The position numbers and the translations under genes are program-made. A DNA stretch of 63,924 bases, the filler included. It is 6 parts of 6 records of this genome, joined end to end, with 100 filler letters (N's around TTAATTAATTAA, not from the genome) between each part and the next. Parts side by side here need not be neighbours in the genome. Positions count along the whole stretch, not along the records: positions 13,405 to 38,031 come from SRR2962707_4760; 5 more parts are not named here. The stretch is one strand, 5' to 3'. The notes under the pieces are model-generated. The model searched no databases. It saw only the letters and a list, made by a program, of their open reading frames with translations, and was not told the origin of the DNA. Below, one piece after another: positions 26,358-27,596 of the stretch (position 1 is its first letter; the number at the start of each line of letters is the position of its first letter).

Positions 26358-27596
26358 TCACACCCCCAATTCACCATTTTTGGGCTCAAAGTCTTGCCAT
26401 TCAGACAGTGCTTTTCCCCAAAGCCAGGAAAGAATTTCCGACTTCTCGTTCGTGCCATCAGGCGAATGCATTTCCGACCTGAACCAGACGTCTTCATTTG
26501 ACTTGGCTGATTGATCGCCATCCGATGTTGTGGCCGAGCGTTTCATTTTTTCATGATCAGCGTCGTAAATTTTGTGCCAGTTGAAATCCTGCTTGCCGCC
26601 AAATTTTCGACCTTTGAACTGGGCTGAGGTCCAATCTCCGCCGACGCAAAGAGCGCCAATATGCTCCGCCAGTGTCAAGCCGAGCACAGCACCCGCAGCG
26701 CTGTCGACGGGAAAATGGACGCCAGCGACTGTGCGGTTGATGGCGATGCGGGCGGCCTGCCGCATCAGCATCTCACCCCATTGGCCGCCCTCGCAATATT
26801 GCTTTGCCCCGCTGGCGCGCAGAAGCTTCCAAATCAATCGAGCCATCAAGAACGCCTCTGTCGAGTGGCCACTGGGAAGAGATCCATGTGTCGGAGTGGG
26901 GATCATGGGCTGAATTTGCGGTGAAAACTCAATCGGTCGTTTGACCGCCAACGCATATTTGAACCGCTGCGTGACAAGGCCGGAAAAGCCAAGAGCGGCA
27001 AACAGGAATTCCAGCGTATAGGGAGTGCGAGCCGGGTCGATAAAGCCAATGCTGGCAAAAAAAGGCTCAGGGATGGTAAATTGCGATATCACTTCGCCTG
27101 CCCGATCCTGCCGGATTTGCGCATACCCTTCGACATGTTTCAGCTGTTCTTTCAGCATCTTGATATCCGGAGCCGTCATTTCGACCATGACGTCGTAGGT
27201 CTTTTCTACGTGTCTATTACGTCTCTCCTGGTCTTCGTCGGATTTGCCCCCGGAACAGCGCCATAAGATAGCTGTTGGCTTGTTTTTTGTGTGTTCGAAG
27301 CTGATGTCGATGCTGGTCGCCAATTCAGACTGATACAAGGCAGCACGAACTTCCGGTGCAAGCCGGGGTATGTTGCGGACATCATTGGCCAATCCGGCTT
27401 GGATATCGCCGACCGCTCCAAGGCTGGCGCCCGCGATGCCGTCGCGATTGGTCACGAGCGCCTGCGTCAAAAGTGGATTGCCTGCTCCGGGCGTGCCGTA
27501 GGCGCTGTAGGCGCTGTAGGCACTGTATGCGCTGTACGCGCTATAGGCACTGTAGGCGCTATATGCGCTGTAGGCACTCTGTGGAAGAATGGACAT
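26358..27596 (-). CDS. vanadium-haloperoxidase/PAP2-superfamily enzyme with N-terminal (SAY)9 repeat
   Basis: All three vanadate/phosphate-binding motifs are present: KYALAVKRP (Kx6RP), PTHGSLPSGHS and NRTVAGVHFPVD. AGGAG RBS upstream; no signal peptide. Confidence 0.88.
   Translation of the reverse strand: MSILPQSAYSAYSAYSAYSAYSAYSAYSAYSAYGTPGAGNPLLTQALVTNRDGIAGASLGAVGDIQAGLANDVRNIPRLAPEVRAALYQSELATSIDISFEHTKNKPTAILWRCSGGKSDEDQERRNRHVEKTYDVMVEMTAPDIKMLKEQLKHVEGYAQIRQDRAGEVISQFTIPEPFFASIGFIDPARTPYTLEFLFAALGFSGLVTQRFKYALAVKRPIEFSPQIQPMIPTPTHGSLPSGHSTEAFLMARLIWKLLRASGAKQYCEGGQWGEMLMRQAARIAINRTVAGVHFPVDSAAGAVLGLTLAEHIGALCVGGDWTSAQFKGRKFGGKQDFNWHKIYDADHEKMKRSATTSDGDQSAKSNEDVWFRSEMHSPDGTNEKSEILSWLWGKALSEWQDFEPKNGELGV
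27498..27578 (-). repeat. 9 x 9-bp coding tandem repeat encoding (Ser-Ala-Tyr)9
   Basis: Units AGY-GCN-TAY. Six different 9-mers, all differing only at synonymous third positions. Confidence 0.97.

Follow-up and report, generated by a model that had tools for sequence, protein, structure and literature searches.

A tripeptide array at the N-terminus of a PAP2-fold enzyme belongs to a widespread three-gene bacterial cassette and is coupled to the divergence of a neighbouring TPR domain

The DNA studied here (the window) is a stretch of 63,924 nucleotides, filler included, made of six parts of one genome joined end to end. Its minus strand carries, at 26358..27596, a gene for a soluble PAP2-fold enzyme that begins with nine tandem Ser-Ala-Tyr units, (SAY)9. 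Based on the results of this study, the (SAY)9 array belongs to a widespread bacterial cassette of three genes, for a transducer with a TPR domain (REG), the array-tailed PAP2-fold enzyme (array-PAP2) and an S8 subtilase, and no published description of this cassette was found. Neither the cassette nor tripeptide-repeat PAP2 proteins are described in the full-text literature searched, which did not cover subscription journals. Among related loci, a change of the repeated unit is coupled to divergence of the TPR domain of REG and not to divergence of the PAP2 core or of S8. We consider the chances to be about evenly balanced that the array serves the neighbouring TPR sensor as a private and multivalent peptide ligand, with S8 as the processing enzyme. 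For the cassette as a whole, the best-supported reading is that its proteins would be co-transcribed and form one signalling switch with a transcriptional or cyclic-nucleotide output.

The array gene of the window was read directly from the sequence, and all of its parts lie on the minus strand. A Shine-Dalgarno word, AGGAG (27606..27610), stands 9 nt 5' of the ATG (27594-27596). The leader MSILPQ (27579..27596), whose final P-Q is the conserved pre-array dipeptide, is followed by nine perfect SAY units (27498..27578) written with six distinct DNA 9-mers, and then by a Gly-rich linker, GTPGAG (27480..27497), which joins the array to the conserved motif NPLL..ALVTNRDGIAG. The reading frame continues through the PAP2 catalytic domain (26667..27005, residues 198-310, assigned with Pfam) to the stop codon TGA (26358-26360) and encodes 412 residues in total. 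The initial annotation, made by a model from the letters alone, had described the nine units between MSILPQ and GTPGAG together with a good AGGAG ribosome-binding site. These statements were accurate: the units run from 27578 down to 27498 in the frame of 26358..27596, their DNA is exactly that which had been listed, and AGGAG is present at the position given above. Equally accurate was its statement that the units differ only synonymously, as eight synonymous and no non-synonymous differences from the array consensus were counted in the window.

Relatives of the array gene were sought in a collection of 185,579 species genomes, with one genome per prokaryotic species. At least 580 relatives were confirmed among the 600 pattern matches listed, and 336 clusters of relatives were obtained at E<=1e-30. 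The comparative locus set consists of the best 80 of these at least 580 relatives; its hosts are mostly Rhodobacterales, and also Roseibium, Thalassobaculum, Microvirga, Bradyrhizobium and one Burkholderiales metagenome-assembled genome. At each locus, the array was located by extending the reading frame upstream of the conserved core. An in-frame N-terminal array was found at 79 of the 80 homologous loci, and the remaining locus (L056) is cut by a contig end. The initial annotation had allowed that translation might start downstream of the repeat, or that close homologues might lack any repeat; instead, an upstream start followed in frame by three or more perfect tandem tripeptides is present at 78 of the 79 evaluable loci, and the other one (L018) has an imperfect period-6 array of the GGQGAY type. 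Together with the window, these 78 loci give the 79 arrays to which the counts below refer, and units ahead of the first perfect unit (e.g., GAH before GGY in L009) were excluded from the array definition. A Shine-Dalgarno-like word precedes the chosen start in 77 of the 78 loci, by a lenient criterion which was itself used for the choice of the start. No array-less close relatives were obtained from a 400-genome sample of the class of G001, in which two true family members were present, the others being generic PAP2 matches.

The initial annotation had proposed that homologues be tabulated and that a variable unit with a conserved three-residue periodicity would be informative, and this is the pattern observed. 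The 79 arrays comprise 30 unit types, including GAF, GAY, GGF, SAY, GSL, GGV, NAY, GGL, GSF and SGA, all with period 3, and each array holds 6-17 units (median 10). The first two residues of the unit are small (G, S, N, A, D), and the third is F (28 arrays), Y (23), L (18) or else V, A, H or I. In more distant relatives, units such as SGR, SGE, TGD and GGA were found. The surroundings of the array are also constrained. The leader, 4-12 residues long across loci, has E or Q as its last residue in 62 of the 79 arrays, preceded by P in 55 of them; G follows the array directly in 60; and, of the 53 arrays in which the distance could be measured, 51 end 14-20 residues ahead of an RDG motif that is nearly invariant. 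Periods of 4 and 5 also exist, outside the 79 arrays: a period-4 array, (GGAS)8, was observed at L101 (G153:C1:2028000-2040000) and a period-5 array, (QGGFS)5, in P0209. Period 3 is dominant, not obligatory. One Bradyrhizobium genome was observed to hold two complete cassettes (L100, G004:C3:78000-90000, and L080), of which one has (SGA)10 and the other an array of GGA units including a single GGV.

Arrays are hidden in protein databases because a systematic start-codon error places the starts of the gene models behind the array. Among 258 called relatives, an array is visible in only 24, with period 3 in 23 of them and period 5 in one; the lesson for annotation is that database entries which start behind the array conceal this feature. 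Gene models often begin at an internal Met, as in P0003 (locus L006), P0004 (L004), P0008, P0012, P0018 and P0020. For example, the model of Tateyamaria omphalii (P0003) is 351 residues long and begins MLTEALITNRDG, and its locus encodes (SAY)10 upstream in the same frame.

What is maintained in these arrays is the unit peptide and not the DNA repeat, because the units are perfect in protein and yet scrambled in codons. In the window, all eight differences being synonymous has a probability of about 3e-6, given that about 20% of single-base changes would be synonymous. Tandem Repeats Finder reports the window array with period 9, 8.7 copies and 81% DNA matches, and the protein units are 100% identical. 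Public metagenome contigs from a 95-99% identical relative cover the array without indels. Inside the array, this environmental relative differs from the window at 12 positions, all of them third codon positions and all synonymous; outside the array, the 28 listed differences of the gene comprise 20 synonymous and eight non-synonymous ones, and 51 further differences lie across the compared stretch beyond those listed. It was also observed that 12 of the 27 third codon positions of the array differ, and that the stretch 26485-27439 differs at about 3% (29 of 955 bases). This suggests that synonymous variants are shuffled between units by gene conversion or unequal exchange, or that the short contigs hold a mix of strains. 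A function of the repeat in DNA-level slippage or contingency was ruled out by the codon scrambling (81% DNA identity) and by the absence of indels in relatives.

The same pattern holds across the family. Among the 805 in-phase units of the 79 arrays, 771 are perfect, and these are written with 610 distinct DNA 9-mers. Altogether 1165 synonymous differences from the array consensus were counted, against 204 non-synonymous ones, where the expected synonymous share of random single-base changes in the arrays is about a quarter. Moreover, all of the non-synonymous differences fall within 34 whole 'spacer' units, which are made of G, S, N, T, Q and A and are two or three residues off the array unit, none being off by one; 52 of the 79 arrays are without any spacer. 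The purifying selection on the peptide proposed by the initial annotation is thus strongly supported by the window (8/8), the environmental relative (12/12) and the family (771/805). As a side observation, the spacers (SGS, GGQ, GNS, TGS and others) are always exactly one unit long, and they often divide arrays into two or three blocks of two to six units, at similar places within a clade (e.g., L019, L020, L036, L046, L051, L055 and others).

The order of the three genes is always REG, array-PAP2 and S8 on one strand. REG lies upstream at 79 of the 80 loci and S8 downstream at 78, and the missing ones fall at contig ends. The gap between REG and PAP2 is mostly 18-54 nt, and PAP2 and S8 are usually separated by a few to tens of nucleotides or overlap, although some of these values are unreliable owing to the choice of start codon. 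An apparent fusion of PAP2 and S8 in L022, L025, L052 and L072 was ruled out, since a stop codon is present and the fusion was an artefact of reading-frame extension. In the window, REG (27627..29642, minus strand, 671 residues) ends with its stop codon 30 nt ahead of the start of the array gene, and S8 (24173..26356, minus strand, 727 residues) begins with an ATG 1 nt past the PAP2 stop codon. Among public sequencing runs, no RNA run was listed as containing the window.

REG of the window consists of an OmpR-type winged helix (residues 36-107), a middle domain and a C-terminal TPR domain, by Pfam. The TPR domain, residues 401-671 (27630..28442, minus strand), within which the TPR matches of Pfam fall at 482-641, is the proposed reader of the array. 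The Pfam scan of REG matched only Trans_reg_C and generic TPR families, and no relative of the middle domain was found in PDB at E<=1. Among solved structures, the TPR domain is closest in sequence to PEX5 (E=2.2e-5, REG 527-631) and also to designed TPR proteins. In 31 homologues scanned, the output domain of REG is a winged helix-turn-helix in 21 and a class III cyclase in eight, and was undetected in two. The TPR domain would be the constant receiving part, because the output is swapped between winged helix and cyclase while the TPR stays. A constant TPR, array-PAP2 and S8 with an exchangeable output is the signature expected of a signal-transduction module.

The other two proteins of the cassette appear to be intact enzymes. 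S8 of the window matches Peptidase_S8 (Pfam, 3e-13), and its catalytic residues are kept in nearly all of 79 homologues (D206 in 79, H303 in 78, the oxyanion N424 in 78 and S722 in 76); no PDB relative was found by sequence at E<=0.01. The PAP2 domain of the array protein was called with PF01569 at 6.1e-13 and is the only Pfam match of the window protein at E<=0.01. Its three motifs, KX6RP, PSGH and (S)RX5HX3D, are all intact: K213..R220-P221, P241-S242-G243-H244 and R288..H294..D298 are invariant in 21 sequences, and in an alignment of 71 sequences K213, R220, S242-G243-H244, R288, H294 and D298 are invariant and P221 is nearly so, with 37 invariant columns in the PAP2 core. The closest solved structure by sequence is the acid phosphatase 7f17 (7e-8). 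Like the class A acid phosphatases and vanadium haloperoxidases, the array-PAP2 family keeps all three PAP2 motifs (nearly) invariant; it differs from them in being a soluble protein of 412 residues whose N-terminal part is long and helical, which carries a repeat tail and whose partners, the TPR protein and S8, are fixed. PF22778 (VCPO_2nd) is recorded on 43-52% of the members of the nearest Atlas clusters and among many precomputed matches, and no match to it at E<=0.1 was found in four homologues scanned with Pfam; a haloperoxidase relationship of the enzyme is only hinted at. No signal-like N-terminal segment was seen by eye in the array-PAP2 protein or its cassette neighbours, S8 of the window included, and the leader MSILPQ has no hydrophobic signal-like segment by the same inspection. 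The array-PAP2 enzyme and the switch appear to be cytoplasmic.

The relation between the unit and the other parts of the cassette was examined in 27 disjoint closest-relative pairs from 76 loci, ranked by their PAP2-core plus S8 distance, of which 16 share the unit and 11 differ in it. Alignments were made with quick MAFFT and the tree with FastTree, and the pairs were picked greedily and not on the tree. For each region, divergence was expressed relative to that of PAP2 core plus S8 and compared between the two groups with one-sided Mann-Whitney U tests. The median for the TPR domain (401-671) is 0.54 in same-unit pairs and 0.90 in different-unit pairs (p=0.0001). Its two halves behave similarly, with 0.42 against 0.80 for residues 401-540 (p=0.0001) and 0.48 against 0.80 for residues 541-671 (p=0.0019), and the REG middle domain follows with 0.70 against 1.03 (p=0.039). 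The corresponding values are 1.01 and 1.17 for residues 1-100 of the PAP2 core, which touch the array (p=0.11), 1.62 and 1.75 for S8 55-190 (p=0.12), and 1.07 and 1.05 for S8 191-450 (p=0.47). A change of the unit is therefore coupled to divergence of the TPR domain and not to that of the PAP2 core or S8. Similarly, the nearest neighbour by REG 541-671 shares the third residue of the unit in 0.88 of the loci, compared with 0.68-0.76 for regions of comparable length. The initial annotation had suggested that the repeat might be a ligand for the neighbouring TPR or S8 protein; the TPR half of this suggestion gains from the coupling and from the exchange described below, and the S8 half does not, as no region of S8 is coupled to the unit.

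The clearest single case is provided by L019 (GAF) and L021 (GAY). These loci have about 94% DNA identity, and their proteins differ at five residues in the PAP2 core and at 13 of 671 in S8. The exception is a tract of about 420 bp with 57-75% identity, which runs from ~93 codons before the end of REG through the intergenic spacer, leader and array and stops where the array ends. The synonymous divergence (dS) is 1.15 in the last ~93 REG codons and 0.06-0.38 in the other parts of the cassette, so that the tract was imported as a block and did not arise by a burst of point mutation. None of the 80 loci was identified as donor of the tract in L019.

Several observations weigh against the TPR domain as reader of the array. 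The coupling is statistical, and it comes from quick MAFFT alignments and greedily chosen pairs. The whole unit is predicted no better from the TPR domain (0.55) than from S8 (0.53-0.55), some pairs with different units have no raised TPR ratio (L041/L044 with 0.54, L028/L031 with 0.57 and L029/L030 with 0.51), and no single TPR column of REG survives correction among the 401 columns tested (best p 0.0025). Units that deviate by a single residue occur in relatives, such as SSF in the SGF array of P0002, and also in P0223, P0257 and L018. Because the array lies next to the TPR end in the DNA, the two could also be transferred jointly with no interaction between them. Such proximity does not, however, account for an effect that reaches the far half of the TPR domain and is absent from the adjoining PAP2 core. 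Finally, a binding mode with one unit per TPR motif would not require identical units; strict identity fits better with one pocket for interchangeable units, or with released peptides of unit size.

If the TPR domain does read the array, the following mechanism could be envisaged. The (SAY)9 array would be a lineage-specific 'code' which is shown on the N-terminus of the PAP2-fold enzyme and is bound by the TPR domain of REG, whose gene ends 30 nt upstream. S8 would remove or fragment the array, with cuts possibly at the conserved P-E/Q site that precedes it or within the Gly-rich linker that follows it, and the cutting would shift the oligomeric state of the transducer and hence its activity. 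Several identical units could gather several transducer molecules. OmpR-type winged helices and class III cyclases both work as dimers, and ligand-driven assembly is attractive because both types of output act in this form. Since the units are strictly identical, they would be interchangeable, either as copies of one ligand for one type of pocket or as released peptides. We infer the physical binding, the role of S8 and its cut sites, the direction of the signal flow, and what the PAP2 enzyme senses or does.

Binding of peptides is familiar from natural repeat proteins, as armadillo and TPR proteins also bind peptides. That a TPR domain could bind a tripeptide array is physically feasible because nM-pM affinities for peptides of 4-6 tandem tripeptide repeats have been reached with designed repeat proteins (PMC10115654). 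As in the cassette, a helical repeat protein there faces at least 4-6 tandem tripeptide units. The designed binders use one protein repeat per peptide unit, whereas in the cassette non-identical TPR motifs stand against identical units, which speaks against strict one-to-one reading.

The mechanism can tentatively be carried further, to an intracellular and programmable 'peptide barcode'. The units would gather two or more matching TPR transducers and so turn the dimeric outputs on, the subtilase would erase or release the barcode, and barcode and reader would be inherited as one recombining hypervariable block. This extended form is possible but doubtful. If it were true, co-resident cassettes, such as those with SGA and GGA in one Bradyrhizobium genome, and neighbouring strains would stay insulated from each other, and the system would be the natural equivalent of the designed binders of tripeptide repeats and, within the Gram-negative cytoplasm, an analogue of pherotype systems.

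An alternative, which we regard as unlikely but not far-fetched, is that the array is a multi-copy precursor: S8 would cut it to identical peptides of unit size, which the TPR domain would bind through the new C-terminus or which would be used elsewhere, and PAP2 would be a carrier or modifier. PEX5 and Hop bind C-terminal peptides, and PEX5 reads a C-terminal tripeptide; the TPR domain of REG has PEX5 among its best solved relatives, but only at E=2e-5. A precursor needs strict identity of its units, and 771 of the 805 are perfect with none one residue off. The protease gene, with intact catalytic residues, lies 1 nt past the PAP2 stop codon in the window and close behind it elsewhere, and the TPR coupling suits a released peptide as well as a tethered one. 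However, the units abut without cleavage or recognition spacers. Their last residue may be F, Y, L, V, A, H or I (in distant relatives R, E, D or S), and yet no S8 region tracks the unit. A sequence-blind tripeptidyl peptidase is disfavoured because leaders of 4-12 residues keep no frame of three and because periods of 4 and 5 occur, and no exporter is conserved beside the cassette. Trimming of the N-terminus by such a tripeptidyl peptidase was itself considered as a candidate and ruled out by the leader lengths and by (GGAS)8 and (QGGFS)5.

An improbable alternative is that the tail is a pro-peptide or degron. It would cover or control the active site of PAP2, or else label the enzyme for S8, and its removal by S8 would turn the phosphatase on or off; the link to the TPR domain would be hitch-hiking of neighbouring DNA. 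The nearly fixed distance of 14-20 residues between the tail and the RDG motif (51/53) and the tight linkage of the S8 and PAP2 genes would agree with this, and so would the L019/L021 tract, as a recombination import in which neighbouring DNA moves together. On the other hand, a mask for a highly conserved active site, with 37 invariant columns, should not vary over 30 unit types. The PAP2 segment beside the array has no significant coupling to the unit (p=0.11) and the TPR domain is coupled even at its far half, 401-540 (p=0.0001). Hitch-hiking also leaves the perfect identity of the units unexplained.

It is still less probable that the array is a self-assembly tail which clusters the enzyme through polyproline-II or polyglycine-II helices, cross-beta polymers or condensates. 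Many units resemble the [G/S]-Y-[G/S], FG-type or GGX motifs of phase-separating and silk proteins, and period 3 is dominant (79 of 79 arrays analysed and 23 of the 24 visible in called proteins). But units without aromatic or large residues exist (SGA, GGA, GGV, SGE, TGD), which also weakens the self-assembling or amyloid-like motif suggested by the initial annotation, SAY without glycine breaks the collagen and polyglycine-II rule, periods 4 and 5 occur, and self-assembly predicts neither the TPR coupling nor a constant protease partner. A collagen-like or polyglycine-II repeat as such was rejected, as SAY, SAF, NAY, SSY, NAL, DAL, AAF and other units are without Gly.

An enzyme-fused multi-core precursor of a ribosomally synthesized and post-translationally modified peptide (RiPP), in which the PAP2 or haloperoxidase-like domain would modify each Tyr (e.g., by halogenation) and S8 would release the products, is very improbable: the architecture resembles that of enzyme-fused precursors such as borosins and VCPO_2nd is recorded on 43-52% of the nearest Atlas cluster members, but Tyr is the third residue in 23 of the 79 arrays only, F, L, V, A and I are not open to the same halogenation, Pfam gives PAP2 alone for the window protein with no VCPO_2nd at E<=0.1 in the four homologues, and no conserved transporter, immunity or further tailoring gene lies nearby. 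Tyr chemistry is not the common function because the third residue is variable (F 28, Y 23, L 18, and V, A, H or I) and the distant units SGR, SGE, TGD and GGA are without Tyr; the halogenation substrate proposed by the initial annotation, with a Tyr at every third residue, is not sustained. A multi-core RiPP precursor is also disfavoured by the layout of the arrays, whose units are contiguous and interrupted only by occasional three-residue units of G, S, N, T, Q and A.

Among known systems, the cassette resembles two kinds in function. The RRNPP peptide-receptor systems of Firmicutes (Rap-Phr, NprR-NprX, PlcR-PapR, PrgX and AimR-AimP), in which a protease matures the peptide, also encode a lineage-specific peptide beside a TPR receptor with DNA-binding or enzymatic output, and peptide and receptor diversify together; in the cassette, the TPR gene ends 30 nt before the array gene. 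The differences are considerable. In the cassette, 6-17 identical copies of the peptide sit on the N-terminus of a conserved enzyme in place of a separate secreted pro-peptide. Its hosts are Proteobacteria, its outputs are an OmpR-type winged helix or a class III cyclase, and export and re-import are not indicated. Moreover, REG has no homology to Rap, NprR, PlcR, PrgX or AimR beyond generic TPR in Pfam and PDB. In staphylococcal agr and pneumococcal com, the DNA of the ligand and of the sensor part of the receptor is exchanged as one hypervariable block, and L019 and L021 likewise differ by a ligand and sensor segment swapped as one divergent tract. In contrast to these pherotype systems, the cassette proteins are unrelated, the system appears cytoplasmic, the ligand would be a tandem array on an enzyme, and there is one clear mosaic pair. 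The cassette fails as a member of RRNPP or of the pherotype systems, although these are functionally the nearest known systems. PEX5, as the best solved relative of the REG TPR domain (E=2.2e-5), offers a further likeness; this similarity is weak and generic for TPR proteins, and the biology is unrelated.

If the proposed switch is real, it would be a kind of bacterial signalling module undescribed in the literature searched and present in several hundred species genomes, whose specificity would lie in a short peptide, present in many copies on an enzyme and recognised by the TPR domain of the neighbouring protein. Synthetic biology would gain a natural set of orthogonal pairs of peptide and TPR domain, with 30 unit types among the 79 arrays, and the module would be a test bed for repeat proteins that read repeat peptides. 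It would also be a new input to cyclic AMP and transcription control in marine Rhodobacterales and rhizobia.

Genes around the cassette are variable. No exporter, immunity or tailoring genes are conserved around it in the 80 loci, and the PADLOC defence models gave only a weak generic subtilase match (3e-5) and nothing for PAP2 or REG. The commonest flanking family after the cassette genes is a protein of about 215 residues without a Pfam family, present in at least 24 of the 80 loci, and the next family occurs in 13 loci at varying positions. The gene of the ~215-residue protein ends at or overlaps the start of REG on the same strand (L006:4374-5018, L002:4031-4675, L020:3951-4592 and others), and tblastn found no copy of it in the window. 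Divergent genes without a Pfam family were observed upstream of REG, namely a family of about 440-490 residues in 10 loci and a Cys-containing family of about 116 residues in eight (e.g., L003:2928-4253, L006:2649-4085 and L019:3410-3757, all on the minus strand); they may be targets of the winged-helix transducer.

In the window, an open reading frame of 209 residues (30443-31072, plus strand) diverges from REG; it has no match in Pfam, NCBIfam or PADLOC and no relative beside the other 80 cassettes. It is followed by a gene for a GAF-GGDEF-EAL protein (31539-33389, plus strand). The cassette itself lies on the piece at 13405-38031, which comes from record SRR2962707_4760 and has a guanine plus cytosine content of about 0.54-0.61; the neighbouring pieces have about 0.49-0.55 and may be other DNA. 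The junctions of the pieces are at 6815-6914, 13305-13404, 38032-38131, 51920-52019 and 57877-57976, and each consists of a pair of 44-N runs.

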